Positions 42,242 to 62,127 of a stretch of 64,000 nt of DNA are shown piece by piece (position 1 is the first letter of the stretch; each line of letters begins with the position of its first letter). The notes under the pieces were generated by a model. The model was not told the origin of the DNA and did no database searches. It saw nothing but the letters and a program-made list of their open reading frames with translations. Source of the stretch: Pacificibacter sp. Its GTDB lineage: Bacteria; Pseudomonadota; Alphaproteobacteria; Rhodobacterales; Rhodobacteraceae. The position numbers were made by a program, and so were the translations under genes. The DNA lies in assembly GCF_039769035.1 (NCBI RefSeq), contig NZ_JBDMZG010000023.1, forward strand, positions 4,429 through 68,428, in the 5' to 3' direction.

Positions 42242-42268
42242 TATCAATCCGGTTTGGCTAAGAATATA

Positions 42269-43626: not shown

Positions 43627-44211
43627 ATGCAAATTCTGAAATCAAATGCCTTGATTGATGTGCCATGGAAAAACGGCGGCGGGATCACGCGCAACATCGC
43701 GAAAGGTTTGCGTGAGGGCAAGATTGCTTGGACCATTAGCCGCGCTGATGTCGCCGAGGCTGGCCCTTTTTCTGATTTTGCAGGCATGATACGTGTGCTG
43801 ACTGTAGTGTCTGGCGGGACGATGGTTTTGGACACACCCAAAACGTCCCTCACGGCGGTGCTTTTTTCGCCAGTTCGCTTTGATGGGGCGCTGAAGGTGT
43901 TTTCGCGTTTGGAAGATGGCCCGATTACTGATCTGAATCTTATGTTTGATCCGAGCTTTTGTGACGGGGATGTCGTGGTCCACAAAGGCCCGTGCGATCT
44001 CAAAGCCACGTGTCCGGAGCACGGAGTGTTGGCGTTTCATGGGCTTGCCGGAGGCCCCTGCGTCGACGGAACGGCAATCAGCTCCGCGGATACGGCGTTT
44101 GTCACACAGCCCAACGCGATGCTTCAGTTGAAAGAAGGAGAGGCATTGCTTGAGCTACGCTTAAGCTATCTGGATCAAGACAATGCCATCAAGCTGTGCA
44201 TTGCAGATTGA
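43627..44211 (+). CDS. hutD: HutD-family protein
   Basis: PWKNGGGITRNI, ISRADV..GPFSDFAG..R and TDLNLM. Confidence 0.9.
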   Translation: MQILKSNALIDVPWKNGGGITRNIAKGLREGKIAWTISRADVAEAGPFSDFAGMIRVLTVVSGGTMVLDTPKTSLTAVLFSPVRFDGALKVFSRLEDGPITDLNLMFDPSFCDGDVVVHKGPCDLKATCPEHGVLAFHGLAGGPCVDGTAISSADTAFVTQPNAMLQLKEGEALLELRLSYLDQDNAIKLCIAD

Positions 44212-44353: not shown

Positions 44354-46456
44354 CTAAGTTGGATCCGCTTCCGCTGCGGTTTTAATGACCGGCTCCATGG
44401 ACGCTAAGGCCTCGGGGCTTAGGTGACATTTGACTTGATGCCCATCCGCAAGGTTCTGCACGTCTGGAACTTGGGTCTCACAGAGATTGCCTGCCACCGA
44501 CGATTTCCAACGGCACCGCGTTTGGAACGGGCAACCAGAAGGTGGGTTCATGGCGGAAGGAATGTCGCCTTCAAGGACGATTTGTTGCTTCTGGATCGTG
44601 GTGTCCGCAATCGGAACCGCCGACAACAATGCTTCGGTGTAGGGGTGGTACGGAGGCGAGAACACCTGATCAGCTGTGCCAAGCTCCACGACGTGACCGA
44701 GATACATCACCAGCACTCGATCACTGAGGTAGCGCACAATGGAAAGATCGTGAGAGATAAACAGCAACGTGGTGCGGTTCTTACGTTGAATCTCCATCAG
44801 AAGATCTGTCACTGCGGCCTGCACAGACACATCAAGGGCAGACACAGGTTCATCCGCGACGACGATCTTGGCGTCGCCGGCAAACGCACGCGCGATCCCT
44901 ACGCGTTGCTTTTGACCGCCTGAGAGCTGCCGCGGGGTGCGTTCGGCGAAAGCGCGAGGCAGTTTGACCAAATCCAGAAGTTCAAGCATACGATTGCGGC
45001 GCTCTGCATCATTGCTGCCAATCTTGAAAATTTCCAACGCGCGGATGATCTGGCGCCCAATGGTCATGGAGGGATTGAGCGTGTCGAAGGGGTTTTGAAA
45101 AACCATTTGAACACTGGAAACGGCCGTTGTGCCACGTTCGGCAATCGGCGTGTCTTGGATCTCGGTGTCGAGCAGTTGGATCTTACCATCGGTGGCTGTT
45201 TCAAGGCCCAACAGCATTTTAGCGAGCGTGGACTTGCCGCAGCCAGACTCTCCAACAATGGCGAGGGTTTCTGCTTCGTGAGCACTGAAGCTGATGTCCT
45301 CGTTGGCCTTCACAACGGCGACATCGCTTTTGTTTTTGAACATCGAGCTTGAGGCGACTTCATAGTATTTTTGAAGGTTTTGCAGATCAAGGATCTTTGC
45401 ACCGCGATCGGTTTTCTCCGTTTGTCGCGCCACTTCTGGCTCGGCCAGCCAATCGATCTCTTCATAGCGGCGGCATCGTGTCTCGTGAAGGCCGTTGCCA
45501 TCGACGGATGCCATTTCAATAGCCCCTTGGTCGCATTGGCCTTTAACAGCGTAAGAACAGCGTGGACCAAAATTACACCCTATCGGGCGTTCGTGCGGCA
45601 AGGGAAAGTTGCCGGGAATTGCCATAAGCGGACGGCTGTTTTTGTCCGCACCGGGCAGGGGGATCGAGCGGAAGAGAGCTTGCGTGTAGGGATGGCGCAT
45701 TTTGTCAAAGACGTCTTTGATTGACCCGCGCTCAATCGCTTCGCCGGAGTACATCACGCAGATGCGGTCGCAGGTTTCCAGAACCAAACCAAGGTTGTGC
45801 GAGATAAACAGGATGGATGTCCCGTATTTCTTACCAAGGTCTTTCACCAATTCAATCACCGCTGCCTCAACCGTTACATCCAGCGCAGTGGTGGGCTCAT
45901 CTAGGATGAGCAACTTGGGCTTTGACATCAATGCCATGGCAATCACGATACGTTGTTGTTGCCCGCCTGAGAGCTGGTGAGGATAGCTGTTCAAAACGCG
46001 TTTTGGGTCTGGAAGTTTGACGTCTGTGACGACCTCCAAGGCACGCGCATAAGCGTCATTCGCGCACATGTTCTCGTGCAGCATGGGCACTTCCATCAAC
46101 TGCTTCCCGATTTTCATCGCAGGGTTTAGCGAGGCCATGGGCTCTTGGTAAATCATGGCGATTTCTTTGCCGCGGATGCGGCGCAGTTCTTCTGCGGGCA
46201 TTGTTGTCAGATCTTTGCCTTTGAACTTGATCGTTCCTCCAACAATTTCACCGTTCTTGCCAAGATCGCGCATGATCCCGAGCGCGACTGTAGATTTCCC
46301 GCAGCCAGATTCACCCACAAGGCCCAGTGCTTCGCCCGGCATGATTTTCGCGGAGAAGTCCATCACGGCGGGAATTTCCATTAAGCGCGTCATGAAGCTG
46401 ATCGACAGTTTGTCGATTTCCAAGATAGGGCCGGCATAGTCTGTTTGATCGGACAT
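44354..46456 (-). CDS. Peptide/opine/nickel ABC transporter, fused double ATPase
   Basis: Two GESGCGKST Walker A motifs, two LSGGQ motifs and two C-terminal GCxFxxRC oligo-HPY domains. Confidence 0.93.
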   Translation of the reverse strand: MSDQTDYAGPILEIDKLSISFMTRLMEIPAVMDFSAKIMPGEALGLVGESGCGKSTVALGIMRDLGKNGEIVGGTIKFKGKDLTTMPAEELRRIRGKEIAMIYQEPMASLNPAMKIGKQLMEVPMLHENMCANDAYARALEVVTDVKLPDPKRVLNSYPHQLSGGQQQRIVIAMALMSKPKLLILDEPTTALDVTVEAAVIELVKDLGKKYGTSILFISHNLGLVLETCDRICVMYSGEAIERGSIKDVFDKMRHPYTQALFRSIPLPGADKNSRPLMAIPGNFPLPHERPIGCNFGPRCSYAVKGQCDQGAIEMASVDGNGLHETRCRRYEEIDWLAEPEVARQTEKTDRGAKILDLQNLQKYYEVASSSMFKNKSDVAVVKANEDISFSAHEAETLAIVGESGCGKSTLAKMLLGLETATDGKIQLLDTEIQDTPIAERGTTAVSSVQMVFQNPFDTLNPSMTIGRQIIRALEIFKIGSNDAERRNRMLELLDLVKLPRAFAERTPRQLSGGQKQRVGIARAFAGDAKIVVADEPVSALDVSVQAAVTDLLMEIQRKNRTTLLFISHDLSIVRYLSDRVLVMYLGHVVELGTADQVFSPPYHPYTEALLSAVPIADTTIQKQQIVLEGDIPSAMNPPSGCPFQTRCRWKSSVAGNLCETQVPDVQNLADGHQVKCHLSPEALASMEPVIKTAAEADPT

Positions 46457-46508
46457 ATTTTCTTCTTTCGTTCGCTGGATCTGGCGGTTTGACACCGCCG
46501 GATGTGAC

Positions 46509-47699
46509 TTAGTCGCGCAGGCTTTCTTCGCGCAGACCGTCGGCAAGAAGGTTGAGGCCAAGCACGAGGCTCAAAAGAGCGATGGCTGGCGGTAGGGCGG
46601 GATGAAGGTAGATTGACAAGAGTTTGCGGCCCTCATTGATCGTTGAGCCCCAATCCGGACTCTCGGGCGGAAGGCCCAAACCGAAGAAGCCAAGTGTCCC
46701 CAGAAGGATGGTCGTGTAGCCAATGCGCAGGCAGAAATCCACGATGAGCGGGCCGCGCACGTTGGGCAAAATTTCCCACAACATGATGTACCAATGCGAT
46801 TCACCGCGTGTTTGCGCCGCGGCAACGTAGTCGCGGGTTTTAACATCGAGGGTAAGCCCCCGCACGATCCGAAAGACGGTTGGCGCATTTACGAAAACCA
46901 CGGCAACAAAAACAACAAGAATGCCGCCAGGAACGTCGAAGCCGTCTAGCAAAGCTGGCACGAGATCTATGGCTCCGCCTTTTTCGGAAATCAAAGACAG
47001 GTAAATCCAGCCCATGCTCCCGAGCACCACGATCAAAAGCGGAGTGCGCACGCTGGGCCGAGTGTGAAAGCGCGAGTTCAGCAAAACGCCCACAAAAATC
47101 AGCGGGAATATGAAGAGGACGGCTGCCATATAATTGGGAATGCCAGATTCTACGATCTCTGGTGTGACCAAGAGGTAGAACAGGAGAATAACAGGAAAGG
47201 CTAAGATCAGGTTGGCTGCAAAAGAGAGGGCTGTGTCCAAATACCCGCCAAAATAGCCCGCAGGCAATCCCAGTGTGATGCCAACCATAAAGGCAAAAAG
47301 AGTTGAGAGAGGTGCGATTTGCACGACAACGAAAGCGCCTTTGACCATTCGGCTGAACACATCACGCGCCAAGTTGTCACCACCAAGAAGATAGTAGCCA
47401 GAATATTTGCTCGAGTCTGGCACCGGTGTTCCCGGAGCTTTGTTTTTGAGGCCCGAAATTTGGGTCAGTGGATCATGCGTGATGATCATATCCATCGCGC
47501 CAAACAGGCCGGTGAAGATCCAAAACATAACGAGGAAAAATCCTACCATGCCAACCTTGCTGTCAAAGAGCTTACCGTAGAGGCCAAGCTTGCGTTTGTA
47601 GGTGATGGACAGCACAAACACAGCGGCCAAAGCAATCCAAACCGGCATAAACTGCAATAAGATGCGCACGATGATTGCGCCCCAGCTCAGAGTTTCCAT
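46509..47699 (-). CDS. Peptide/opine ABC permease (DppC-like)
   Basis: LGGDNLARDVFSR, DYVAAAQTRGE, ILPNVRGP and LGFFGLG..PDWG. Confidence 0.9.
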   Translation of the reverse strand: METLSWGAIIVRILLQFMPVWIALAAVFVLSITYKRKLGLYGKLFDSKVGMVGFFLVMFWIFTGLFGAMDMIITHDPLTQISGLKNKAPGTPVPDSSKYSGYYLLGGDNLARDVFSRMVKGAFVVVQIAPLSTLFAFMVGITLGLPAGYFGGYLDTALSFAANLILAFPVILLFYLLVTPEIVESGIPNYMAAVLFIFPLIFVGVLLNSRFHTRPSVRTPLLIVVLGSMGWIYLSLISEKGGAIDLVPALLDGFDVPGGILVVFVAVVFVNAPTVFRIVRGLTLDVKTRDYVAAAQTRGESHWYIMLWEILPNVRGPLIVDFCLRIGYTTILLGTLGFFGLGLPPESPDWGSTINEGRKLLSIYLHPALPPAIALLSLVLGLNLLADGLREESLRD

Positions 47700-47713
47700 G
47701 AGTCAATTCCCTC

Positions 47714-48760
47714 TTAGGATACGCGAATGCGCGGGTTGAGATAGACATATCCAATGTCGCTGATGAGCTGCGTAAGCAGGACAACCACAACGGATACCAC
47801 GGACACTCCCAGCAGAAGCGAGATGTCATTATTGCCAGCGGCTTGCACCAGTGCCCAGCCAAAACCTTTGTAGTTGAACAGGGTCTCGACGATGACCACG
47901 CCGTTCAACAGCCATGGGATTTGCAGCATAATAACGGTGAAAGGGGCGATCAGAGCGTTTCGCAGCGCATGGCGAATAACAATGTCGCGGAACTTCACGC
48001 CCTTGAGACGCGCCGTGCGGATATATTGCGCGGTCATGACCTCAGCCATCGAAGCGCGCGTCATCCGTGCGATATAGCCCATGCCATACAACGCGATTGT
48101 GACAACTGGTAAAAAGAAATTCCGGAAAGTCGCGTCGTCCATTGCTTTCGTGGCGGTGCCAGTGAACCATTTCAATCCAACGGCCGACGAGGCGAAGACA
48201 GCAATGAGAATGACGCCTGACACGTATTCAGGTGTGGCCGTTGTGGTGATGGCGATCGAGGACAACGTGCGATCGGTTTTTGAGCCCTCTTTCATACCAG
48301 CAATGACACCAAGGATCAGCGCAGATGGGATCATCACCACAAGCACCCAGAACATCAATTTGCCTGTGAGAGCGAGGCGGGTGCCGATGATGGTGCTGAC
48401 GTCATCGCGGAAAACCGTAGACGTCCCCCAATCCCCCTGCAAAACACCGCAGTACTTTGGGGCATTTGCGGGATCGATACTACGTTTGATACAGGTCCCT
48501 GTTACGTCACCAGCTTCATCCGAAATTGTGAAGCCGGGAACGACGCCGAGCCATTCGCCGTATTTCGTGAGCATCGGGCGATCATAACCACGCTTGTGCA
48601 GCCATGATGTCACCTCAGCGTCAGCCATGCGGCTGTTGCCTTGCGTTTTAGCGAGTTTTTCAAGGTTGGGCGGCAGGTTTGTCAGCGCAAAGACTATGAA
48701 GGTGAGGCAAAGTGCTGTCAAAATCATAAACGCAAGGCGTCGCAGTAAAAAGAGTACCAT
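47714..48760 (-). CDS. Peptide/opine ABC permease (DppB-like)
   Basis: GDWGTS, ARMTRASMAEV..YIRTARLKG, HALRNAL and VETLFNYKGFG. Confidence 0.9.
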   Translation of the reverse strand: MVLFLLRRLAFMILTALCLTFIVFALTNLPPNLEKLAKTQGNSRMADAEVTSWLHKRGYDRPMLTKYGEWLGVVPGFTISDEAGDVTGTCIKRSIDPANAPKYCGVLQGDWGTSTVFRDDVSTIIGTRLALTGKLMFWVLVVMIPSALILGVIAGMKEGSKTDRTLSSIAITTTATPEYVSGVILIAVFASSAVGLKWFTGTATKAMDDATFRNFFLPVVTIALYGMGYIARMTRASMAEVMTAQYIRTARLKGVKFRDIVIRHALRNALIAPFTVIMLQIPWLLNGVVIVETLFNYKGFGWALVQAAGNNDISLLLGVSVVSVVVVLLTQLISDIGYVYLNPRIRVS

Positions 48761-48848
48761 TTTTGTCCTCAGTTGGCTGGCCACTACAGGCGGCAAAAGG
48801 CTTGGCGCTGAATGTGGCACGCCTCACGCGGATCGGATGTAGGTGGAA

Positions 48849-48874
48849 AAGCAGCTGACCTAAGTCAGCTGCTT
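48849..48874 (-). terminator. Stem-loop after the SBP gene
   Basis: AAGCAGCTGAC-CTAA-GTCAGCTGCTT perfect 11-bp stem. Confidence 0.65.
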
Positions 48875-48884
48875 GTATTTTGAA

Positions 48885-50531
48885 TTAGGCCTCAAACGAG
48901 ATTTCGCTGGGTCTAATTTCATGTGTTGGGTGCATGTCAGCGTTCACCACATTTTGCGCAGAGTGACGGTAGAGCAAGCGCCAGTACGGCTGAATTGTCA
49001 CGGCTTCATCTTGCATAATCCGTTGCAATTTTTCCATCAATTCACGGCGCGTGTCCGCATCCGCAATGGAGAGAGCTTGGTCCAGCGTTTCGTCAAACTC
49101 TTTGTTTGCGAAGCCCGTTTCGTTCCAAGCAACTCCAGAACGATACGCTAGATTGTACACTTCTACCCCCAAGGGTCGGTGGCCCCATGTTGTGGTTGAG
49201 AATGGGTACTTGGTCCAATCATTCCAGAACGTGGACCCTGGCAAAAGCTTGCGTGAAACGTTGAGGCCTGCATCTCGCAACTGGCCTGCCACTGCATCAG
49301 CGGTGTCTTTGGAGAAGCCGCCGTCTGTTGAAACCAGTTCGAATTCCACATCGGCCAAACCAGATTCTTGTGCGAGCGCCAAGGCCGCGTCCGGGTCGTA
49401 GCTCAGTGGTGGGAGCTCTGCATAATCGGGGTGAATGGGGCTGACATGATGGTTTTCGGCAGCAATACCGCGGTCTGCGTAGCCCAGCTCCAGTGTGACA
49501 GCATTGCTGCTCGCCATCTGCAAAGCCTTGCGCGCGCGCACATCTTCGAAAATCTTTTTGCCATCGACTTCGGCGAGTTGGTTGGGGCGCACAACAATCG
49601 TACTGGCAGTGGTTGCCGATGTCTGCTTCCAACCAAGGCTGTCCATGATGTCGACAAATTCGCCGGTGGTTTCATACACCAGATCGATTTCTTCGCTTTC
49701 AACAGCTGCAAGAAGAGATGCGGGCTCTGTGCCGTAATCGATGTACTCGACACCGTCCAGTGACACTTCACCGCCCCACCACGTGTGGTTTTCCGCTTTC
49801 ACGATGACGGCCTTCACACCAATTTCGATGCTTTCCAAACGGAAGGGGCCCGTGCCTATTGGATTTACTGTCGGATCACCTTCGTGGGATGAATGCGTCA
49901 CCGCAGCTGGGTAGTCAGCAAAGGACGCAATGATCGAAATGTCAGGCTTTGAGAGGGAGAGTTTAACAGTGTGTTCATCAACAATCTCGATCGCATCGGC
50001 ACGTATCACGCCAGATTCCGCATCGGTGAGGGATGACATCCGCGCTGCCATTGAGTTGCCTTCGACCGAACTGTCTGCCCACATAGAGATATTGCGTACG
50101 ACATCCTGCGCTGTAAAAGCATCTCCGTTATGCCATGTGACGCCTTTGCGAACATGCAATGTGTATTCAGTTGCATCCGCGTTGGCTTCCCACGCTTCAA
50201 GCAGCATAGGGCTGAAGCTGCCGTCACGTTCGTAGCTTACAAGGTATTCCAACCAACCGCGTGTCAGGTTGCCCAGCTCTGGCCAGTCAAACGTGCGCGG
50301 GTCTTTTGGTGATTTGATTGGCATGCCGACACGCAGTGTGCCACTAGATGCATCTGACGCAGCTTGAGCTGGTTGAACGAGCCCCATAGCGCCATAGGCA
50401 ACCGAGGCAGTGACACCCAGCGCAGTCGCACGACTTAGAAATTCGCGGCGGCTGAGCTTGCCTGCGGTGTGTTCTTGTAGATACATATGCGCTGCATTGG
50501 GCAGCTCTGGCTTTGCTGTTTTCTGTGTCAC
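48885..50531 (-). CDS. Tat-exported family-5 solute-binding protein
   Basis: GTG start behind GGAGA; SRREFL twin-arginine motif and AQA cleavage site; [24 protein letters not shown] and GTGPF. Confidence 0.9.
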
Positions 50532-50811
50532 GTTACGTTCTCCATGTTGTGGTTCTTCTGCTTCAGGTTTTCCTGTTAAGCGGCGTTTTGCTATGAAACT
50601 TTGGATGTCTGCGCGCCTGGGCGTGATCGCTACAGTCGTTGACTGTGATTGCTCTCGGAACGGCAATTCGGTGTAAGCCGTCACGCAGTCCCTTAGCGGC
50701 GCTCAATGAGGCATCAAGCGCTGTGAAAAAAACGATATAGATCGAGCATTGGCCGAAGAAAAACGGCGCTTTCATCTCACTGGGTTGCGTTGTCATGGCG
50801 CATCATCATTC

Positions 50812-50831
50812 CATTATGTCTGCACATAATG
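50812..50831. promoter_or_regulatory. HutC operator box 2, in the SBP / lyase-1 divergent region
   Basis: CATTATGT-CTGC-ACATAATG; core TATGTCTGCACATA is 12/14 identical to boxes 1 and 3. Confidence 0.7.
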
Positions 50832-51099: not shown

Positions 51100-52569
51100 A
51101 TGCAATACGATAAGCAAACCCCTACAACTGAATTGACAGGTGATATGTTGACCTGCGAAGTCCTCGTGGCGATCTCGAAGGGACAAATGCATGCGAGCTT
51201 ATCTGAAGCAGCAACACAGCGTATAGCCGAGTCTCGCAAGCATGTGGATAAGATTGTCAATGAAAGGCGTCCTGCATACGGTATTACAACGGGAGTTGGA
51301 TCTCAAAAAGATCATCAAATCGATATGGAGGCTGTCGCCTTGTACAATCGGCGTTTGGTGAAAGGGCATGCGACGCGTGTGCCGGGGCCATCTTACGACC
51401 CTTCGATTGTGCGCGGCGCATTGGTCGTCCTCTTGAATGGGTTCGCCAAAGGTGGATCTGGTGTCACACCGGAGCTGACAAAAATTTTGAAACAGAAAAT
51501 TTCCGCGAGCGAGATGCCAACAATTGATGCAAGCGGATCGGTCAGTGCATCCGACCTTGTGCCTCTGGCTCAAACCGCCGACTGGTTGCTATCAAGCGAA
51601 GACGCCGAGTCAGCAGGACTGCCCAAGGCAAAAGAAACGCTCTCTTTGATCAACTGGAATGCATTTACTCTGTCCGAAGGGGCGCAGCACATAACGGAAC
51701 TGCTGCGTTTGCTGGACGTTTATACTCTTGCGTTGGCGACAACATACGAAGGCTTTCGAAGCAATCTTGATGCCATTGCGGAGCCCGTGAATGCGCTTCA
51801 CCGGCGAGGCGGACAGTCTAAAGTTGCGGCCGATCTGCGGGCTCACCTTAAGGGCAGTGCGCTTTGGCAATCTGGTGCCTCGCGGTTCCTCCAAGATCCT
51901 CTAAGCTTTCGGACGGCCTCACAGATCCATGGGGCTACATTTGAGTGCTTTAAGTCGCTAGAATCCGTTTGGAACAGCGAGTTGAACACCGTCAATGACA
52001 ACCCTATTATTGATCGCGCTGATGGTCGGGCATATTCACATGGCAACATGGACACCACGCGGTTTACGCTGGCGCTGGACACTGCGCGGCAAGCCTTGGC
52101 TAAGGTGGTGGATGTGTCTGGTGAGCGTATTCACAAACAACAATGGCCCGTTTTTTCCGGTCTGCCTATTGGCCTTTCTGAAGAGGATTCCGCGACTGGG
52201 GGCGTTCAGTTTTTGAACCTTGGGCACATCTCTTCTTCCCTGATCACATCGGTGAAAATTTGGGCCACACCACACTTGCTAAACTCAGTTGGACAGGTGG
52301 CTGATGGGGTTGAAGACACTGCAAGCCATGCCATGCACGCCGTACATGATTTGAAAAGGCAATTGGATGCGAGCTGGAAGATTGCCGCTTTAGAAATGCT
52401 GGTGGCTGTTTGGGCCATTCACCGCCGTAAATTGCCTTTGGATGAGTTGGGAAAAGATGTGCGAGAGGTGTATCAAACGCTTCTCCCTTTGCTGCCCATC
52501 GGTCATGAAGGTGATGCAGTTTTCGATCTGGCGGAGGTCATAGCTGCGGTTAAGGCAATCAGGGTTTAG
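51100..52569 (+). CDS. HAL/PAL-superfamily lyase lacking the MIO motif (lyase 1)
   Basis: YGITTGVG, NGFAKGGSGV, QDPLSFR..QIHGA, NTVNDNP, HGN and VED; GSVSASDL at 51535-51558 instead of GSVGASGDL. Confidence 0.85.
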   Translation: MQYDKQTPTTELTGDMLTCEVLVAISKGQMHASLSEAATQRIAESRKHVDKIVNERRPAYGITTGVGSQKDHQIDMEAVALYNRRLVKGHATRVPGPSYDPSIVRGALVVLLNGFAKGGSGVTPELTKILKQKISASEMPTIDASGSVSASDLVPLAQTADWLLSSEDAESAGLPKAKETLSLINWNAFTLSEGAQHITELLRLLDVYTLALATTYEGFRSNLDAIAEPVNALHRRGGQSKVAADLRAHLKGSALWQSGASRFLQDPLSFRTASQIHGATFECFKSLESVWNSELNTVNDNPIIDRADGRAYSHGNMDTTRFTLALDTARQALAKVVDVSGERIHKQQWPVFSGLPIGLSEEDSATGGVQFLNLGHISSSLITSVKIWATPHLLNSVGQVADGVEDTASHAMHAVHDLKRQLDASWKIAALEMLVAVWAIHRRKLPLDELGKDVREVYQTLLPLLPIGHEGDAVFDLAEVIAAVKAIRV

Positions 52570-53473
52570 GGGCCGCTTGTTTTAGCAGCTGTTGAATGTG
52601 ATCCAAATATTGCGACTTGCGCGGCTTAACTTCGCTTAGGCTCCGTGCGTTTTGCGACACATAATATCCGTACGGCAAGCTGAGTTGAGTGCTGGCGAGC
52701 GCAGTGACTTGGCCTGCCGTTATGGCCTTTTGCGCTAAGCTGAGCGGGGCAAGCATGATACCAGCGCCTCGGATCGCCAGTTCCAGCCCTATGTTTGTCC
52801 CAGCAACGCGCAGACCTGCACGCGCATCGGAGATTTTACGGTTTCCAAAATTTCGAAACCAAGTCGCCCAAGTCGGATATGACGTATATGTTTCGCCCCA
52901 ATCTACATGAATGAGCAGCCTGTCGGGGATGTCCAAAAGATCCGGCGGCAGGTGCTGTGCCAAAGGGGGGGCACAGATGGGGGCCACGGTGTCTTGGAAA
53001 AGCAATTGGCTGGTGACGTTTGCGGAGTTGTGGTCTTGAAACGAGACTCTCAAGTCGATCTCGTGTTGGTCAAAGACAAACGGATCTGAGTCTATTTGAA
53101 GCGACACGCCCACCTGAGGGTTGGAGTGCCGAAACTTGGCGACAGCGGGAACAACCAAACCTTCGGCAAGCGATTGAATTGTGCTGATCACAATTCTGGA
53201 GCGCATATCCTGCTCAAGAAATCGCTCCGTGATTTCAGAAAGATCTGACAGGGCACGGGCCACGTGGGGGTATAGCATCTGTCCCGCATCCGTCGTCGTT
53301 AGGAAGTTGTTGCCGCGCAGAAATAATTGCTTTCCAAGGAACTCTTCGGCTTTGCTGACTTGAAGACTGACGGCTGCGGATGAGACGCCGAGTTCCGCAC
53401 CGGCAGCCGTGAATGTTCCGCATCTGACCGTGGCTTCGAAGGCTTTAATCGCGTTGAGAGGGGGTAATTTCAT
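52559..53473 (-). CDS. LysR regulator, GcvA/AmpR type
   Basis: MKLPPLNAIKAFEA..FTAAGAELGVSSAAVSLQV; divergent from the OCD gene. Confidence 0.9.
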   Translation of the reverse strand: MKLPPLNAIKAFEATVRCGTFTAAGAELGVSSAAVSLQVSKAEEFLGKQLFLRGNNFLTTTDAGQMLYPHVARALSDLSEITERFLEQDMRSRIVISTIQSLAEGLVVPAVAKFRHSNPQVGVSLQIDSDPFVFDQHEIDLRVSFQDHNSANVTSQLLFQDTVAPICAPPLAQHLPPDLLDIPDRLLIHVDWGETYTSYPTWATWFRNFGNRKISDARAGLRVAGTNIGLELAIRGAGIMLAPLSLAQKAITAGQVTALASTQLSLPYGYYVSQNARSLSEVKPRKSQYLDHIQQLLKQAAPKP

Positions 53474-53578
53474 AGGGCCAGTATTGGCATAAGAAAAACT
53501 TGTGCAATGCCCAATTTTTCTAGAATCACGTTTTTCTTGAAAGCGCGTAATCTGTTCCAAACTGAATTGGAGGAAACG

Positions 53579-54589
53579 ATGTCGCGTATGGAAATTGAAT
53601 ATTTGGGCAAACCGGAAATCGATGCACTGGCTCTGACGAACGATGAAATTTTAAATGCCATCGAGCAGGGCTTGATTGCAGCTGGGCAGGGCAAAACCGT
53701 TATCGAGCCGCGCATGCACCTGACCCCTGACCCGAGCTTCGATGGGCATTTCAACGTTCTGCGCGGATATGTTGAGCCGCTCAACTATGCTGGCGTTAAA
53801 GTCGTGGGTGATTTTGTCGACAACTACAAACATGGGTTACCCAGTGAGTTGGCCCTGCTGAACCTGTTCTGTCCACGCACTGGTGCGCCCAAAGCCGTGA
53901 TCGATGCCGCAGGCATTACGGATATGCGGACGGGAGCATTGACTGCGCTCGGGGCGAAATGGCTTGGTCCAAAAAATCCAAAAGTATTGGGGCACCTTGG
54001 GGCCCGAGGGACGTCCTATTGGAATGTGCGTCTTCTCGATCACCTTTTTGACTTTGAAGAAATTCGTGTGCATTCGCGCCGCCCAGAAAGCCGCAATGCT
54101 TTTGCAGAGAAGCTGACACAGGACCTCGGCAAGAAAATCACTGTAACGGAAGATTGGGAAAGCTGCCTTAAAAGCGCTGACATTATGATAGAAGCAACGC
54201 GTCTGAATGAACCAACGCCAAAGTTCGACCGGTCATGGGTGAAAAAAGGAAGCTTGGTCATACCGTATGGCACGATGAGCACGCTGCCGTTGGATTTCGT
54301 GGAGGGCATAGACAAATTCGTCATGGATGATTTGGGGCAAATGCGTGCGGGGCACCTCGGAGCACTGCGGCCACATATTGATGCGGGTCTGATCTCAGAA
54401 GAGAACTTTTACGCAGAGATCGGTGAGATAGCAGCCGGATTGAAACCTGGACGTGAACATGAGGATGAGACCATCTTGTTTTGGCACCGGGGTATGTCGA
54501 CCGGCGATATCGCTTTGGGAGCAGCGATTTTGGAAAAAGCACGCGCACGCGGCAATGTGCAAAATCTGCTTTACCGAGAAGACCAATGA
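53579..54589 (+). CDS. Ornithine cyclodeaminase / mu-crystallin family protein
   Basis: GVKVVGDF, TDMRTGA, GARG Rossmann motif, ADIMIEAT, EIGEIAAG..GRE and GDIALG. Confidence 0.88.
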   Translation: MSRMEIEYLGKPEIDALALTNDEILNAIEQGLIAAGQGKTVIEPRMHLTPDPSFDGHFNVLRGYVEPLNYAGVKVVGDFVDNYKHGLPSELALLNLFCPRTGAPKAVIDAAGITDMRTGALTALGAKWLGPKNPKVLGHLGARGTSYWNVRLLDHLFDFEEIRVHSRRPESRNAFAEKLTQDLGKKITVTEDWESCLKSADIMIEATRLNEPTPKFDRSWVKKGSLVIPYGTMSTLPLDFVEGIDKFVMDDLGQMRAGHLGALRPHIDAGLISEENFYAEIGEIAAGLKPGREHEDETILFWHRGMSTGDIALGAAILEKARARGNVQNLLYREDQ

Positions 54590-56115
54590 AAGCGCTGAGA
54601 TTAGACGGTTCAAACTTGACTGTTGGCGTCTTGGCGCGAGCGGCTTGTGGGGAATACCAAGTCGAGCTTTCAGACACGGGCTTAGAACGCATGCGCCGCG
54701 CGCGAGCACTTGTGGACCGCGTGATCGAACAGCGCGTTCCTGTCTACGGTGTGACAACTGGCCTTGGGGCCAGATCATCCGAAGCGCTCGATGCGCACAC
54801 CTTGCAGGAATTCTCAATCCAAACTCTGCGTGGGCGGGCGCAAGCGATGGGGTCAAAGGCGCCCCGCGAAATTGTGCGCGCCGCCATGATCGTCAGGGCG
54901 AACACAATGCTGACGGGATATAGTGGCGCTCGGCCGCAAGTCGCGCTGCATCTAGCGGCCTGTCTGAATGCCAATTTGACCCCTGTCGTTGGTGAGGTCG
55001 GCTCGATTGGCGCCGCAGATCTTGTGCAGAACGCAACGCTTGGTCTTGCTTTGATTGGCGAAGGAGAGATGCAAGATGCGTCAGGTGAAATCGGGCCGAG
55101 CGCTGATAAAATGCGTGCATACGGCATCACCCCACTGACGTTGGGGCCCAAAGACGGCTTGGCTTTGGCCAATCATACAGGCTTTTCAAGTGGAGCTGCT
55201 GCTCTGGCGTGTCATGCCGCTGAGGTTGCATTTGAAGTGGCGCAAACGGCGGCCTCTTTGTCATTAGAAGCCTTTCGCGCCAATTTAACCCCCTTCAAAC
55301 ACAGCGTGCTTGCGGCGAAACCGTTGCCCGGGCAAAGCTTGGTGGCCGCAGGGCTGAGAGCGCGCTTAGAGGGGAGTTTGCTGTGGGATGAAAAACATGC
55401 ACGCCGTCTTCAAGATCCGCTGTCCTATCGCAATATCTGCCAAATTCATGGGGCGACCGCCAGTGCCTTAGAGCAGGCTCGATTGGTCGTTGAGATTGAA
55501 GCGAACGGCTCAAGTGACAATCCGATTGCATTGATCGAAAGCGATGAGATTATCTCGTGCGGCAACTACTATACGGCTGAATTGGGTCAGGGGATTGAGG
55601 GGATAAGCCGCGCAATCGCCTCGCAGGCCATGGCTCAATTGTCGCGGATGTCCAAACTGCTTCATCCTGACTTTAGCGGGCTGCCCGCATTTTTGGCGCA
55701 GGAGAACAGTGGATCAAATGGGTTCGCTCCCGTTATGAAGACCGCCGAGGCGTGGTTGGCCAAACTCGTACATGCTGCGCAACCGGTGCCAATTTGGCCG
55801 AGCATCAATGCCAATGGGGTAGAAGATTGTCTGCCCAATTCACCACAGTCTATTTCTGCGTTGTCTACTGCGGTTGAGTGCATGCGCCATATGAATGCTC
55901 TGGAGCTTTTGATTGCTGCGCAAGCGATCGAGCTGCGTGCGTGTCAGGTTGAGATGGCGCCCTTTGTTCAAGGCACTTTCGCCATGGTGCGCACGCATGC
56001 AAAGGCTTTGACGATAGACCGCTCTTTTGGCTGCGATGTGGATGGGCTGGTGCAGGTCATGCGGGCTGGTGCAAGCTCCGCACTCTTTCCGGTGTGTGCT
56101 ATGTCGCGTAAATGA
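54586..56115 (+). CDS. HAL/PAL-superfamily lyase lacking the MIO motif (lyase 2)
   Basis: VYGVTTGLG, GYSGAR, LGPKDGLALAN, QDPLSYRNICQIHGA, SDNP and VED; GSIGAADL at 55000-55023; ATGA-coupled to the OCD gene. Confidence 0.85.
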   Translation: MKALRLDGSNLTVGVLARAACGEYQVELSDTGLERMRRARALVDRVIEQRVPVYGVTTGLGARSSEALDAHTLQEFSIQTLRGRAQAMGSKAPREIVRAAMIVRANTMLTGYSGARPQVALHLAACLNANLTPVVGEVGSIGAADLVQNATLGLALIGEGEMQDASGEIGPSADKMRAYGITPLTLGPKDGLALANHTGFSSGAAALACHAAEVAFEVAQTAASLSLEAFRANLTPFKHSVLAAKPLPGQSLVAAGLRARLEGSLLWDEKHARRLQDPLSYRNICQIHGATASALEQARLVVEIEANGSSDNPIALIESDEIISCGNYYTAELGQGIEGISRAIASQAMAQLSRMSKLLHPDFSGLPAFLAQENSGSNGFAPVMKTAEAWLAKLVHAAQPVPIWPSINANGVEDCLPNSPQSISALSTAVECMRHMNALELLIAAQAIELRACQVEMAPFVQGTFAMVRTHAKALTIDRSFGCDVDGLVQVMRAGASSALFPVCAMSRK

Positions 56116-56239: not shown

Positions 56240-57232
56240 ATGAAACTCGAACAGAACACTGCAGCGCTCGCTGAGACGGGACGCATCTATTCGGAGAAAC
56301 ATGACAATTTAGCTGTTGGTATCGAGTGGCCGACGCTGGGTATCGCAGCGGTTTGTATTGTTCTTATGCCATTGATCACCTACTTTTCCGACAGCTTTCC
56401 CTTGGTGCTATCCGTGCTGGCGCTCGGGATTGTCCTCGCCCTTCAATCTTCTTTGCAGCATGAAGTTTTGCATGGTCACCCCTTTTCGAGCGAAGCCTTA
56501 AATGAGCTTTTGGTTTTTCTGCCTGCCGGCCTATTTGTGCCCTATCGCCGTTTTAAGGACACGCATATCCAGCATCACTATGATCCAAATTTAACTGACC
56601 CTTATGATGATCCAGAAAGCAATTTCTTGGACCCAAAAAAATGGGATCAAATGGGCCCGCTGCACCGACTGATCTATCGAATGAACAACACAATGTTTGG
56701 GCGGATGGTGCTAGGGCCTGCACTTGGTATGATCTGTTTCTACACGTCAGATTTACGCGAAATATCACGGGGAAATACACGAGTTTTGACGGCTTATGCG
56801 CTGCATTTCATTGGTTTCATTCCGTTAGCTTTCTGGCTCACTACCCTTAGTACAATGCCGTTTTGGGCCTATTTTTGTGCGGCCTATTTCGGAATGTCGT
56901 TGCTCAAAATACGAACTTTTCTAGAGCACCAAGCCCACGAGAAAGTGCCAGGGCGAACAGTTGTCATTGAAGATCGTGGGCCTTTGTCACTCCTGTTTTT
57001 GAACAATAATTTCCATTCGGTGCATCATGCCCACCCGAAGGTTGTTTGGTACCGGCTGCCGCAACTCTATGCACTGCGCCGAGAAGAGTATTTGCGCATG
57101 AACCAAGGGTATCTTTTTGAGAGCTATGGTGACGTGTTCCGACGTTTCCTCTTTAAAGCTAAAGATCCGGTCCCCCATCCACTGCGTGCCAGCCCTTGTG
57201 ACTTGGATTCAAAACAGGATTTACCAAACTGA
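56240..57232 (+). CDS. Membrane diiron fatty-acid-desaturase-superfamily protein
   Basis: His boxes QHEVLH, HIQHH and NFHSVHH; hydrophobic segments. Confidence 0.85.
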   Translation: MKLEQNTAALAETGRIYSEKHDNLAVGIEWPTLGIAAVCIVLMPLITYFSDSFPLVLSVLALGIVLALQSSLQHEVLHGHPFSSEALNELLVFLPAGLFVPYRRFKDTHIQHHYDPNLTDPYDDPESNFLDPKKWDQMGPLHRLIYRMNNTMFGRMVLGPALGMICFYTSDLREISRGNTRVLTAYALHFIGFIPLAFWLTTLSTMPFWAYFCAAYFGMSLLKIRTFLEHQAHEKVPGRTVVIEDRGPLSLLFLNNNFHSVHHAHPKVVWYRLPQLYALRREEYLRMNQGYLFESYGDVFRRFLFKAKDPVPHPLRASPCDLDSKQDLPN

Positions 57233-58047
57233 TGAGAATGACACCTAAACACGCTAGCTTGCCGATGTATGATTTCGCAGGGGTAGCGGAGGCGACGGAT
57301 CTACTTTGGTCGCACTTGAAGCGCGGACCTCTTTCTGAGTTTTACGATGCCCCTGATCGACTGACGCGAGGTATGGATCTTTGGGACCTGTGGCAGCGTG
57401 AGAACTTGTTTCTGGCGCAGACTTGCGGGTTTCCATTTGTACATAAATTACGAGGGCAGGTCGGGCTTGTGGGAACGCCGGACTACGGCGTCGTGCCAGA
57501 AAAACCCGGTTGGTACTATAGCGTGATCCTATGCCGCCAAGACGATCCACGCAGGACTTTGGCGGATTTTGAGGGGGCAAAATTTGCCCTCAATGAAACC
57601 GGTAGCCAGTCCGGATGCCATGCCTTGATGCACACGCTAAATACGCAATTCGGTACCGAAAAATTGCTGGGAGGCAGCTTGTTGACGGGCGCGCATGTGC
57701 ACTCTGCCCTCGCGGTTTTAGAAGGCGAAGCCGACATTGCGGCCGTGGATATTGTGACATGGTTGCATGTTCAGCGCGATCATCCCGAAGTGTCTGGATT
57801 AAGGGTTCTCTTGCAAACGGAGCCAACACCTGGATTACCTTATATTACGGCCAATGCACAGGATGCAGCGCAACTGGGAGAATGCATTTCTGAAGGCATT
57901 CAATCCTTACCTGCGCAGACTGCGAAAGCTCTCTTTCTGAAGGGGGTCTGGCGCTCTAGCGAGGCGGATTATGATATTATTGAGGCCCGAGCCCATGCCG
58001 CAAAAGCCGTTTTTGAAAGCTATTTTCCAAACGGTCTTGCTCATTAG
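57232..58047 (+). CDS. PhnD-like PBP2-fold protein without an obvious signal peptide
   Basis: ASLPMYD, LAQTCGFP, YYSV, ALNETGSQSG, TGAHVHSALAVLEGEADIAAVD and TPGLPYIT; TGATG-coupled to the desaturase. Confidence 0.75.
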   Translation: MRMTPKHASLPMYDFAGVAEATDLLWSHLKRGPLSEFYDAPDRLTRGMDLWDLWQRENLFLAQTCGFPFVHKLRGQVGLVGTPDYGVVPEKPGWYYSVILCRQDDPRRTLADFEGAKFALNETGSQSGCHALMHTLNTQFGTEKLLGGSLLTGAHVHSALAVLEGEADIAAVDIVTWLHVQRDHPEVSGLRVLLQTEPTPGLPYITANAQDAAQLGECISEGIQSLPAQTAKALFLKGVWRSSEADYDIIEARAHAAKAVFESYFPNGLAH

Positions 58048-58218
58048 CTGACGGTTGATATGCCGTCCTCGTTGATCTCTTTGGTGCGCATTCTGCGCCG
58101 GCTCCCTGTGTGTTGAGCGAGAGGCTTTGGGAGGCATCAATGGCGTCATGAAACTGCCTCGATATCAGGCAGTTTGCGTTTCTGCTGTTGAAAAGGCGGT
58201 ATTCTGAAGCTTATCAGT

Positions 58219-59115
58219 TTGCAGTATTTCGTAACAAATGGTGTAAAAGAAAACAAAAAGGGTGCACGCAAATTGATTGATAAACGCGATACTGTGGCGG
58301 TTTTCCGTTCAAGACTTGGAATGTTGATCACGCGCCGTCGTGAGACAACATCGGCCTTTGCGCGGCGTTGCAAGTTGGACCGGTCCGCGCTCAGTCAATT
58401 TCTTGACCCTGGATCCGTTAGGTTGCCGCGGGCGGAAACCCTGACGTCAATTGCTGTGAATGAAGGCGTGAGCATTGATTGGTTACTGGGCATCAGTCAG
58501 GACGAAGAGTCTGTTGGCGAGGTCGCCTCGCTGTTGAATGTTGAACGCGGGCAGCTCGGCACGCGCGATTCACCTTTGGCCAAATGGCACAGCGATGCGA
58601 TTGGCTACAAAATCAGATATTCGCCGTTATCAATTCCGGACCTGCTAAGGACCGAAGCCGTGACCGAATATGAGTTCGATACAAACACACGTATACAGGC
58701 TGATGTGAAACAGGGCCAATCCCGTCATCAATTGGATTACTCCCGAAAACCAGAAACCGACATGGAGACGGTTGTGCCAATGCGTCACCTGCAGGATTTG
58801 GCTTCTGGGACAGGGGCATGGGCGGGATTGAGTAGATCGCACCGCAAAGAGCAGTTCGATCATATGATTCAATTGATCGATGAGCTCTATCCCACGTTCC
58901 GCCTCTTCTTGTACGATGGCCGTGCGCATTATTGTGCGCCTTTCACCTTGTTTGGGCCAAAGCGAGCAGCTGTCTTTTTGGGAGATATGTATTTGGTCAT
59001 CAACTCCGTAGAGCACATTCGGGAATTGACCAATTTCTTTGACAATATCATCAGGCATGCCGTGGTGGGGCCTGACCGCAGCTCTGCGTGGCTCAAAGCA
59101 TTGAAGGTTCAGTAG
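58219..59115 (+). CDS. XRE-type HTH transcriptional regulator with ligand-binding C-terminal domain (start uncertain, possibly TTG at 58273)
   Basis: SAFARRCKLDRSALSQFL..RLPRAETL..SIDWLLG; YPTFRLFLYD. Confidence 0.75.
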   Translation: MQYFVTNGVKENKKGARKLIDKRDTVAVFRSRLGMLITRRRETTSAFARRCKLDRSALSQFLDPGSVRLPRAETLTSIAVNEGVSIDWLLGISQDEESVGEVASLLNVERGQLGTRDSPLAKWHSDAIGYKIRYSPLSIPDLLRTEAVTEYEFDTNTRIQADVKQGQSRHQLDYSRKPETDMETVVPMRHLQDLASGTGAWAGLSRSHRKEQFDHMIQLIDELYPTFRLFLYDGRAHYCAPFTLFGPKRAAVFLGDMYLVINSVEHIRELTNFFDNIIRHAVVGPDRSSAWLKALKVQ

Positions 59116-60498: not shown

Positions 60499-60713
60499 GC
60501 GCCGTGTGAAAGTCAATGAGTGCTCCCTAATTGCTACGCAGCAATTCGTTGAGTTGAAATATAGGTCTAGAAAAGAGCTGCGCTATTAAACGACGTGCCG
60601 CACAGTTTCAAAACAGGTGAATGTCCGACTTCATGTTGTGACTTCACATGGTTGAGTGCGCAGTAGCACAGATTTTCGCGCTGATTTAAAACTTCACTAT
60701 GGCAAAAAAATTC

Positions 60714-60753
60714 CATTTAAGGTATGTGCTGATATGAGTTATGTCTATACATA
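60714..60753. promoter_or_regulatory. HutC operator box 3 / second copy of the 40-bp block
   Basis: CATTTAAGGTATGtgctGATATGagTTATGTCTATACATA; 34/40 identical to 42269-42308; upstream of hutF. Confidence 0.8.
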
Positions 60754-60768
60754 TAAACAGAGGTTGAA

Positions 60769-62127
60769 ATGATTTTTGCAAAGCAAGCACTGCTTTCAAG
60801 TGGATGGGCGTCAGGTGTTCGCCTCGATGTGACGCAGGGGACGATCACAAAAATTGAAACGCAGCAGCAGGCTCACGCAGGTGATGTGACAGTCGACACC
60901 CTCTTGCCTGCCTTGGCAAATCTACACAGTCACAGCTTTCAGCGGGCTATGGCAGGAATGACCGAATACCGCATGGCTGGTAAGGACAGTTTCTGGACGT
61001 GGCGCGATTTGATGTACAAGTTCACCTCAACGATATCAGCTGAACAAGTCGAGGCAATTGCAGCCTTTGTGTTCTTGGAAATGCAAGAGGCGGGCTATGC
61101 CAGCGTTGGTGAGTTTCACTACCTTCACCACCAACCGGGCGGCATGCCTTATGATGATCTTGGCGAACTGTCGTCCCGCATCGCATCCGCGGCAGATGTG
61201 ACCGGCATTGGCCTAACACATCTCCCAGTTCTCTATACATATGGCGGGGCTGGGCAGGTGCCGCTCAAAGCAGGACAGGCGCGTTTCGGAAACTCTGCCG
61301 ATCAGTTTAATGCATTGGTCGATAAAGCAAAAAACGCGGTGTCTTCCCTCGCAGATGATTGCCGCGTCGGCATCGCACCGCACTCATTGCGCGCGATATC
61401 GCCCGATGACCTCAAAGCCGTCTTGGCCGCTCGCTCCAACGGGCCAATCCATATTCATATTGCCGAACAACCCAAAGAAGTCGCTGATATTCAAGCTTGG
61501 CTCGGCGCACGTCCCGTTGAGTGGTTGCTGGCAAACACGGACGCCAATGAAGATTGGTGCCTGATCCATGCCACCCATATGACAGAAGTCGAAACAAAGA
61601 ACATGGCCCAGTCTGGCGTGGTTGCTGGCCTGTGCCCTGTCACCGAGGCCAATCTGGGAGATGGCCCGTTCAATGGACAGGCATATGTGAACCATGGTGG
61701 AGCCTTTGGTGTCGGATCTGACTCCAATGTTCTGATCTCATTGACGGAAGAGCTGCGTACTTTGGAATATTCGCAACGTCTGCGTGATGTTGCGCGAAAC
61801 ATCATGGTCAAAGGTGAGGGCTCCGTTGGGGCGAAACTCTATTGTGGTGCAGCAAAGGGCGGCGCGCAGGCGCTGAGCCGTCAAGCGGGCGACATTTCCG
61901 TTGGAAACCTCGCAGATCTTGTAGCCATCGACAGCACGGCGCCGGCACTCTGCGCGCTACGCCAAGATCAAATCCTCGATGGTCTTGTGTTCGCAGCGAA
62001 GGATACAGTCGTGACAGATGTTTGGTCCGCTGGCAGACACGCGGTGCAAACTGGCCGCCATGTGAAACGGGATGAGATCACTGCAGCCTACACCTCAGCA
62101 ATGCACGCTTTGGTGGCCTCGCTCTGA
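60769..62127 (+). CDS. hutF: Formimidoylglutamate deiminase
   Basis: NLHSHSFQRAMAGMTE, SFWTWR, GEFHYLHH, HIHIAEQPKEV, CPVTEANLGDG and GSDSNV. Confidence 0.96.
   Translation: MIFAKQALLSSGWASGVRLDVTQGTITKIETQQQAHAGDVTVDTLLPALANLHSHSFQRAMAGMTEYRMAGKDSFWTWRDLMYKFTSTISAEQVEAIAAFVFLEMQEAGYASVGEFHYLHHQPGGMPYDDLGELSSRIASAADVTGIGLTHLPVLYTYGGAGQVPLKAGQARFGNSADQFNALVDKAKNAVSSLADDCRVGIAPHSLRAISPDDLKAVLAARSNGPIHIHIAEQPKEVADIQAWLGARPVEWLLANTDANEDWCLIHATHMTEVETKNMAQSGVVAGLCPVTEANLGDGPFNGQAYVNHGGAFGVGSDSNVLISLTEELRTLEYSQRLRDVARNIMVKGEGSVGAKLYCGAAKGGAQALSRQAGDISVGNLADLVAIDSTAPALCALRQDQILDGLVFAAKDTVVTDVWSAGRHAVQTGRHVKRDEITAAYTSAMHALVASL

Follow-up and report, generated by a model that had tools for sequence, protein, structure and literature searches.

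Two ergothionase-like lyases lacking the MIO triad lie in a hut locus without hutH in Pacificibacter sp. and probably supply it with histidine betaines

We suggest that a Pacificibacter sp. (assembly GCF_039769035.1) probably feeds histidine betaines, not histidine, into its histidine utilization (Hut) pathway. The proposal concerns two genes of the PF00221 lyase family, here called lyase 1 and lyase 2, which lie about 2 kb apart in a 64,000-nucleotide stretch of contig NZ_JBDMZG010000023.1 (positions 4,429 to 68,428 of the forward strand; hereafter the window, whose own numbering is used throughout). Both encode proteins that have lost the Ala-Ser-Gly triad from which histidine ammonia-lyase (HAL, the product of hutH) forms its 4-methylideneimidazole-5-one (MIO) electrophile, and both group with ergothionase, while hutH itself has been deleted from the locus. 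To the reading that they are ergothionase-type MIO-less lyases feeding histidine betaines into a Hut pathway lacking hutH we give a probability of about 0.6. The departure of trimethylamine, the two substrates and the reaction of the enzyme encoded beside lyase 2, a member of the ornithine cyclodeaminase (OCD)/mu-crystallin family, we infer from homology and genomic context. To our knowledge, MIO-less trimethylammonia-lyases have been recognised only recently, and about four have known substrates. The two genes are as follows.

51100 to 52569, forward strand: lyase 1, MIO-less PF00221 lyase of family 1; loop GSVSAS-DL; Tyr53, His83, Asn195, Gln277, Leu280, Arg283, Met329 and Glu414, with His at the site of ergothionase Lys384
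54586 to 56115, forward strand: lyase 2, MIO-less PF00221 lyase of family 2; loop GSIGAA-DL; Tyr53, Arg83, Asn195, Gln277, Leu280, Arg283, Tyr329, Lys384 and Glu414

Residue numbers are those of HAL, except that position 384 follows the literature on ergothionase (it is 383 in the PDB chain). Both proteins were aligned to PDB-derived sequences of Pseudomonas putida HAL (1b8f) and Treponema denticola ergothionase (6s7j). Each loop is one residue shorter than the canonical GSVGASGDL, the residue lost being Gly144, and each aligns without gaps with SSIGEGDI of ergothionase. This one-residue deletion in both paralogues had been claimed in a preliminary description made from the letters of the window, and the alignment bears it out, as it does the motifs quoted there for the two proteins: GSVSASDL and GSIGAADL, YGITTG and YGVTTG, QDPLSFR and QDPLSYR, DNP, VED, LVKGHA and TLRGRA, and GFAPVMKT. 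At the site of HAL His83, lyase 1 indeed keeps His and lyase 2 carries Arg, and the Lys of GFAPVMKT in lyase 2 falls on the thiolate-binding Lys384 of ergothionase, where lyase 1 has His. The catalytic Tyr53 and the carboxylate-binding Gln277, Arg283 and Asn195 are retained in both, and position 280, in HAL a Tyr adjoining the MIO/amine site, is Leu in both (QDPLSFR, QDPLSYR), as in ergothionase. Both proteins match PF00221 over its full length (lyase 1 with 294 bits over profile positions 1-463 of 466, lyase 2 with 387 bits over 1-465; cut-off 27.3), and neither reaches the cut-off of the HutH equivalog TIGR01225 (212 and 317 bits against 539). The frame of lyase 1 opens at 51061 or 51100, with the ATG at 51100 the likely start (GGAG lies 6 nt upstream); that of lyase 2 opens at 54481 or 54586, and here the likely start is the second of these, an ATG that shares the four letters ATGA with the stop codon of the OCD gene. 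No signal peptide was found at the N-terminus of either lyase, and both are predicted to be cytoplasmic.

The shortened loop is a property of whole families. Each lyase represents one of two large subfamilies, with hundreds of sequences apiece, that are labelled "histidine/aromatic amino acid ammonia-lyase"; the relatives of each lyase, at 45-60% identity and mainly from marine Alphaproteobacteria, bear the public labels "aromatic amino acid lyase" or "histidine ammonia-lyase". Among the 120 closest relatives examined for each lyase, the diagnostic positions were distributed as follows.

Gly144 absent: family 1 120/120, family 2 120/120
Tyr53: family 1 119/120, family 2 120/120
Gln277: family 1 120/120, family 2 120/120
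Arg283: family 1 119/120, family 2 120/120
Glu414: family 1 119/120, family 2 120/120
Position 83: family 1 His 120/120, family 2 Arg 120/120
Position 384: family 1 His 118/120, family 2 Lys 120/120
Position 329: family 1 Met 120/120, family 2 Tyr 111/120
Leu in place of Tyr280: family 1 120/120, family 2 103/120

The base and the carboxylate site as a whole (Tyr53, Gln277, Arg283 and Asn195) are kept in 103-120 of the 120 homologues. Loss of the MIO triad is ancestral to, and conserved across, both families. The island recurs, with its gene order unchanged, on a Logan contig of a related organism (L141), and against that copy the ratio of nonsynonymous to synonymous substitution (dN/dS) is 0.074 for lyase 1, 0.131 for lyase 2 and 0.037 for the OCD gene. 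Because these ratios are low against a syntenic island in a related organism, both lyase genes are functional and under purifying selection. The preliminary description had judged the reading frames intact, and a pseudogene or a chance deletion is ruled out by dN/dS values of 0.07-0.13 together with the same deletion in all 240 homologues.

The enzyme kind to which the two lyases belong is already described, a point that the preliminary description missed: it comprises ergothionase, histidine-betaine lyase and N-pi-methyl-histidine-betaine lyase. In a maximum-likelihood tree, family 1 (support 100), family 2 (support 100) and ergothionase form one clade (SH-aLRT 99), outside which the canonical HutH sequences with GSVGASGDL fall; the T. 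denticola enzyme (TdETL) is the sole characterised MIO-less sequence in this tree, where it sits on a long branch. The best solved relative of lyase 1 by sequence is likewise ergothionase 6s7j (E 9e-37, against 2e-29 for HAL). When an AlphaFold2 model of lyase 2 (pLDDT 91) was compared with the PDB by Foldseek, 6s7j ranked first, with HALs close behind; the TM-score of the model is 0.90 to 6s7j and 0.92-0.93 to HALs, and the predicted fold alone fails to discriminate between the two types. NCBIfam holds no ergothionase model, and it cannot classify these lyases, since even a lyase with the ergothionase signature, from a genome of the same genus (G013), matches only HAL models, and those below cut-off. 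On these grounds of homology, we assign both lyases to two uncharacterised subfamilies of MIO-less trimethylammonia-lyases. A lyase beside hutC in Leisingera sp. ANG-Vp (L027, 17158-18336) stands on a sister branch to the MIO-less clade; its loop has a three-residue deletion (GSVGY---L), with QDPLSLR and a Tyr at position 384.

Comparison with the known members of this class narrows what each lyase might act on. Ergothionase (T. denticola 6s7j/6s7q; Burkholderia sp. HME13 ErtA), at some 26-30% identity, shares with both window lyases the fold, the one-residue-short loop without Ala-Ser-Gly, the Tyr base, the Gln277/Arg283 carboxylate site, Leu for Tyr280 and Glu414, and with lyase 2 alone the thiolate-binding Lys384. 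It has His83, Ser195 and Phe329, however, where lyase 2 has Arg83, Asn195 and Tyr329, and lyase 1 departs from it in His384 and Met329; the combination of His83 with Lys384 that marks ergothionase proper is found in neither, lyase 1 having His384 and lyase 2 Arg83. HutH (P. putida HAL 1b8f) shares the Pfam family, the fold, Tyr53, Asn195, Gln277, Arg283 and Glu414, and differs from both in its Ala-Ser-Gly, in Tyr280 instead of Leu and in its separate clade. Every characterised MIO-less member of the family needs a trimethylammonium substrate (Bertsova et al., bioRxiv 10.1101/2025.08.13.670108; 10.64898/2026.04.22.720169). Lys384 is reported to be the thiolate ligand, and another residue in its place to indicate a substrate free of sulfur; in Shewanella oneidensis, SO_3057 is an ergothioneine lyase and SO_3299 an N-pi-methyl histidine betaine lyase (bioRxiv 10.64898/2026.04.22.720169). 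SO_3299 is thus a MIO-less subfamily member with a changed residue at 384 that takes a ring-modified histidine betaine; in contrast to the window lyases, it has Gln at 384, is periplasmic and is coupled to a flavocytochrome.

For lyase 1, the best functional analogy is Swoo_3913, the histidine betaine lyase of Shewanella woodyi, compared here by its description (bioRxiv 10.1101/2025.08.13.670108): it is MIO-less, has His and Glu as imidazole ligands and no Lys at 384, and produces urocanate. Lyase 1 has the same two ligands and likewise no Lys at 384 (His83, Glu414, His384), and lyase 2 has neither His83 nor a replaced Lys384 (Arg83, Lys384). Swoo_3913 is periplasmic, coupled to a urocanate reductase for anaerobic respiration, has Asn at 384 and needs Mg2+, whereas lyase 1 is predicted to be cytoplasmic, belongs to a hutU-linked family and has His at 384. 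Since both imidazole ligands are kept and no Lys stands at 384, hercynine is the simplest candidate substrate, and family 1 is probably a hercynine-type lyase. Its genomic setting agrees with this. Ten contexts outside this genome were examined. Four of them (L099, L104, L106 and L112) have family 1 as the next gene after hutU in a shared operon, and each of these genomes also has a canonical GSVGASGDL hutH; because the two co-occur, family 1 is no duplicate of HutH, and it would be an additional entry point to urocanate, not a HutH substitute. In about one third of the contexts (L097, L098, L107) no hut genes lie nearby. The family occurs in 3 genomes of an even 400-genome sample of the class.

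The hut locus of the window, which the preliminary description overlooked, has lost hutH and acquired an island in which both lyases lie. Its features, apart from the two lyases, are the following.

37689 to 38399, forward strand: hutC, repressor gene of the hut locus
38474 to 40144, reverse strand: hutU, urocanate hydratase (950 bits, cut-off 375)
40141 to 40941, reverse strand: hutG, N-formylglutamate deformylase
40938 to 41033, reverse strand: hutH remnant of 31 codons, whose C-terminus (AATMIASEDITTAAS...) matches that of HutH
41030 to 42271, reverse strand: hutI, imidazolonepropionase
42255 to 42308, forward strand: left copy of a 54-nt direct repeat, the hutI/hutF promoter block, with a HutC-like box
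42446 to 43420, forward strand: YeiH-family (PF03601) putative sulfate/sulfite exporter, directly downstream of the HutC-like box
43627 to 44211, forward strand: HutD
44354 to 50684, reverse strand: ABC importer, divergent from lyase 1, comprising the next three entries
44354 to 46561, reverse strand: fused double ATPase of 735 aa
46509 to 47699 and 47714 to 48820, reverse strand: importer permeases
48885 to 50684, reverse strand: family-5 substrate-binding protein (SBP) with a Tat-type signal (TIGR01409, 17.3 bits against a cut-off of 16.7) and a long N-terminal region
50815 to 50828, forward strand: HutC-box-like site TATGTCTGCACATA, between the SBP gene and lyase 1, with two mismatches to the hutI/hutF box
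52559 to 53560, reverse strand: LysR-type regulator (GcvA-like), divergent from the OCD-lyase 2 pair
53579 to 54589, forward strand: OCD/mu-crystallin-family NAD(P)-dependent enzyme, translationally coupled to lyase 2 (ATGA)
56240 to 57232, forward strand: membrane di-iron enzyme of the FA_desaturase family
57232 to 58047, forward strand: PhnD-like (Phosphonate-bd) binding-fold protein, coupled to the desaturase-like gene
58219 to 59115, forward strand: open reading frame (ORF) of 298 aa with only a weak DUF5753 match
60700 to 60753, forward strand: right copy of the 54-nt repeat, upstream of hutF, 80% identical to the left copy
60769 to 62127, forward strand: hutF, formimidoylglutamate deiminase

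In another genome of the genus (G008) the order is hutC, hutU-hutG-hutH-hutI, hutF, and alignment to it shows that 1.47 kb, corresponding to hutH, is missing in the window between hutI and hutG, where the remnant ORF overlaps both flanking genes. hutH has been cleanly deleted, and hutU, hutI, hutG and hutF are intact. The two lyases are the only PF00221 genes in the assembly (98.7% complete), and because hutH is deleted they are the only predicted sources of urocanate in the genome. hutU is its only urocanase and by score a true urocanate hydratase; with the thiourocanate-hydratase model it stays below cut-off (677 bits against 930). Relatives have hutI and hutF as direct divergent neighbours, and here the two are separated by 18.4 kb bracketed by the two repeat copies, both of which carry the box TATGTCTATACATA. 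From hutI to hutF the island holds YeiH, hutD, the family-5 SBP importer, lyase 1, the LysR gene, OCD-lyase 2, the desaturase-like gene, the PhnD-like gene, the 298-aa ORF and a major facilitator superfamily (MFS) transporter. The island is accessory, since within the genus PF00221 genes are missing altogether from most other genomes, and a few have a normal hutH. Matches to the HutC box at two mismatches or fewer number 6 in the window, against 0.11 expected.

The OCD gene between the lyases is a real, conserved partner of lyase 2; absent from the preliminary description, it is the most novel element of the finding. Within 10 kb of family 2, in 80 genome loci, an OCD gene was present in 54, of which 31 have it immediately upstream on the same strand, 10 have it otherwise adjacent and 13 further away. 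In all 54 the OCD protein is more conserved than the lyase (median identity 78% against 50%), and 22 of 23 family-2 genomes without a neighbouring OCD gene carry exactly one orthologue elsewhere (60-74% identity). A LysR homologue is found in 17 of the 80 loci, mostly just upstream of the OCD gene and divergent from it, and many family-2 loci have no hut genes nearby. In some ten gammaproteobacterial and sponge-symbiont loci the OCD gene, together with a short-chain dehydrogenase/reductase gene, stands directly after hutU within the hut operon, and the genes for lyase 2, a desaturase-like protein and an EamA transporter are transcribed towards it. OCD orthologues away from family 2 often lie beside hutC-hutU or beside more distant MIO-less lyases, and these distant lyases have Arg83 and Lys384 in 4 of 5 loci, one of them on plasmid pRL12 of Rhizobium johnstonii. 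A plasmid search with lyase 2 returned two family-2 plasmids, the remaining matches being hutH or distant relatives. The OCD orthologues of G258:C2, G385:C136 and G408:C226 have one in-frame stop each (TAG, TAA and TGA, respectively), and these copies may be decaying genes or assembly errors.

The partner matches PF02423 over its full length (162 bits, cut-off 24) and reaches none of the NCBIfam equivalog cut-offs, the best score being 162 bits where 409 would be needed. Among solved structures it comes nearest to the archaeal alanine dehydrogenase 1omo/1vll and the delta1-pyrroline-2-carboxylate reductase 6t3e; the OCD/mu-crystallin imine reductases, ketimine reductase included, are NAD(P)H-dependent C=N reductases and are nearer to it than the true cyclodeaminases. 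Unlike the named OCD equivalogs, the partner and its orthologues make up a separate group that is tightly conserved and goes with MIO-less lyases and hut genes. R. johnstonii 3841 is a genetically tractable model strain that carries the module: on pRL12 (L140, record 810253-822096) the annotated hutH is MIO-less (GSIGAADL, Arg83, Lys384), and the order runs from a YeiH-like exporter through hutC, this "hutH", an OpuAC-type SBP, the OCD orthologue (66% identity) and a PhnD/SsuA-type SBP to ABC transporter genes. The public names of these Rhizobium proteins are generic.

The genome lacks the known route for ergothioneine. Profiles of NCBIfam found neither thiourocanate hydratase, thiohydantoin desulfurase (NF058529), ErtD nor ErtE in it, and because these classical partners are absent, lyase 2 stands outside the known five-step pathway. 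The profiles do recognise that pathway in G013 (L111, G013:C106, 4058-12937), the positive control: there a lyase with His83, Ser195 and Lys384 is followed by ErtD, ErtE, thiohydantoin desulfurase and thiourocanate hydratase, all four above their cut-offs, and then by an OppA-like family-5 SBP. Such family-5 importers may carry ergothioneine-type betaines in this genus. EgtD was not found in the Pacificibacter sp. genome, which rules out a self-made substrate; the substrate must therefore be imported.

We posit that in both lyases Tyr53, acting as base, would remove the beta-proton and that the quaternary trimethylammonium, good enough as a leaving group to dispense with the MIO electrophile, would be expelled to give trimethylamine and an acrylate-type acid. 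From hercynine, or from a closely similar compound with a neutral ring, lyase 1 would yield urocanate in one step. Lyase 2 would take a histidine betaine bearing an anionic sulfur on its ring, such as ergothioneine or its sulfinate or sulfonate, and Arg83 and Lys384 would hold the anionic C2 substituent, be it thiolate, sulfinate or sulfonate. That an Arg/Lys lyase binds an anionic substituent had been guessed in the preliminary description, and the guess is plausible because the Lys is the thiolate ligand of ergothionase. The product of lyase 2 would be a cyclic amidine, in which an oxyanion group at C2 would resemble the 2-carboxylate of pyrroline-2-carboxylate; the OCD enzyme, of the NAD(P)H imine-reductase type, would deliver hydride to C2, expelling sulfide or sulfite and leaving urocanate, so that a 2-sulfur-substituted histidine betaine would lose its substituent reductively. 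Urocanate from either lyase would then enter HutU-HutI-HutF-HutG. A YeiH-family putative sulfate exporter, present behind a HutC-like box in the window and again in the pRL12 cluster, and the PhnD/SsuA-fold proteins found in both would fit a sulfur oxyanion, and the desaturase-like di-iron enzyme might, speculatively, oxidise the thione. In its fullest form this scheme makes lyase 2 and the OCD enzyme a hitherto undescribed two-step route, of trimethylamine loss and then reductive C2-S cleavage to urocanate, that with the family-1 hercynine lyase runs Hut on betaines without hutH and has spread horizontally among marine Alpha- and Gammaproteobacteria, sponge symbionts and rhizobia; we offer it tentatively, as a proposal more doubtful than the feeding of betaines into Hut as such.

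A number of observations weigh against these proposals. In the 400-genome sample the OCD orthologue is commoner (25 genomes, among them all 5 with family 2) than family 2 at the threshold used (5), and about half of the OCD orthologues have no lyase within 8 kb; the OCD enzyme may thus have a role independent of the lyase. We know of no OCD-family activity that cleaves a C-S bond reductively. YeiH, considered as a conserved partner, was found in none of the 80 family-2 loci, and is confined to the window and pRL12. No clear trimethylamine monooxygenase was found in the genome, the sole match resembling a flavin-containing monooxygenase being partial. The importer beside lyase 1 has a family-5 SBP, of peptide/opine type, and is no OpuAC or BCCT betaine system, an objection tempered by the OppA-like SBP in the classical ergothioneine operon of G013. 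The family-1 loop retains a strongly conserved Ala-Ser (GSVGAS-DL), for which a lyase that forms no cofactor offers no reason, and the His at 384 in lyase 1 is unlike the Asn and Gln of the two characterised sulfur-free betaine lyases.

One alternative would have both MIO-less lyases act on betaines or N-substituted amino acids other than histidine (Tyr, Trp or Phe betaine, with an acidic betaine for the Arg/Lys enzyme), the hut setting being a mere landing site. The replacement of the imidazole N-tau ligand by Arg83 in lyase 2, the peptide/opine-type importer, and the absence of nearby hut genes from about a third of the family-1 contexts and from many family-2 loci would all fit this. It leaves unaccounted for, however, that in four unrelated genomes the family-1 gene comes after hutU within one operon, that OCD stands beside hutU or hutC in many loci of different classes, that Glu414, the imidazole N-pi ligand, is kept in both families (119/120 and 120/120), with His83 invariant in family 1, and that a HutC-like box lies upstream of lyase 1. 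We regard this alternative as unlikely.

It is also possible, and in our view a little less probable still, that lyase 2 and its partner perform the ergothioneine-sulfonate catabolism already published for Agrobacterium radiobacter by Yan, Huang and Zhang (ACS Catal 2022, 12:4825), a work represented here by its title as cited in PMC13405746; the lyase 2 half of our scheme would then be known biochemistry. Rhizobiaceae do carry the Arg83/Lys384 lyase with the OCD gene, betaine-type SBPs and a putative sulfate exporter, and Arg with Lys would suit a sulfonate. Yet the ergothioneine-utilisation models of NCBIfam release 20 (ErtD, a second ErtD type, ErtE, thiourocanate hydratase, thiohydantoin desulfurase and S-methyl variants) match neither the OCD protein nor the lyases, the Rhizobium proteins bear generic public names, and neither another hydratase of the urocanase type nor a thiohydantoin desulfurase is encoded in the Pacificibacter sp. 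genome. A literature search on ergothioneine and hercynine lyases and on desulfonation found nothing beyond two Shewanella preprints.

A return to histidine itself is very unlikely. One or both enzymes might still be histidine ammonia-lyases, with an Ala-Ser-Asp electrophile or none, that replace the deleted HutH; hutH is gone while the rest of the pathway is intact, and family 1 does conserve Ala-Ser before the deletion. However, none of the 240 homologues has the Gly that closes the MIO ring through its amide, Tyr280, essential in HAL, is Leu as in ergothionase, family 1 elsewhere shares its operon with a canonical hutH, which argues against redundancy, and the characterised MIO-less members all need a trimethylammonium substrate (Bertsova et al., bioRxiv 10.1101/2025.08.13.670108; 10.64898/2026.04.22.720169). 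The preliminary description had offered two MIO-independent C-N lyases with different substrates or one hetero-oligomer, and the former is favoured by the ergothionase clade, the complete catalytic sets and the differences at positions 83, 329 and 384. An obligate hetero-oligomer with mixed active sites is scarcely credible, for although HAL-family active sites are assembled from several subunits and the genes lie 2 kb apart in one island in both the window and L141, each protein has a complete catalytic set, the two are separate transcription units with a divergent LysR gene between them, the families normally occur alone (family 1 within 10 kb in 0/80 family-2 loci, family 2 in 0/10 family-1 contexts from other genomes), and in G305, the one other sampled genome with both, the lyases are some 2.8 Mb apart.

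Should ergothionase-type lyases indeed feed histidine betaines into Hut, a widespread misannotation would be corrected, and the cytoplasmic consumption of hercynine- and ergothioneine-type antioxidants by marine and symbiotic bacteria would be identified, along routes that release trimethylamine, a gas relevant to climate and health. The OCD/mu-crystallin family would gain a new reaction, and a Hut pathway deleted for hutH would constitute a natural experiment, testable by growth on histidine versus betaines.

Among the remaining neighbours, the desaturase-like gene, the PhnD-like gene and the 298-aa ORF travel together, with family-2 lyases in the window (56240-59115), L141, L041 and L050, and with family 1 in L105 (8278-13401) and L113 (7321-11400), where the family-1 gene is coupled to them as in the window. 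The membrane di-iron oxygenase seems to be a recurrent third partner of both lyase families. In L105 the lyase is followed by a fusion protein of FA_hydroxylase, VTT and rhodanese domains, and the lyase 2 gene on a plasmid of Rhodobacteraceae bacterium M382 is followed by a gene of the sterol-desaturase family. A further HutC-box-like site, TATGTCAATACATA, with one mismatch, lies at 14721-14734 of the window, distant from the hut genes.

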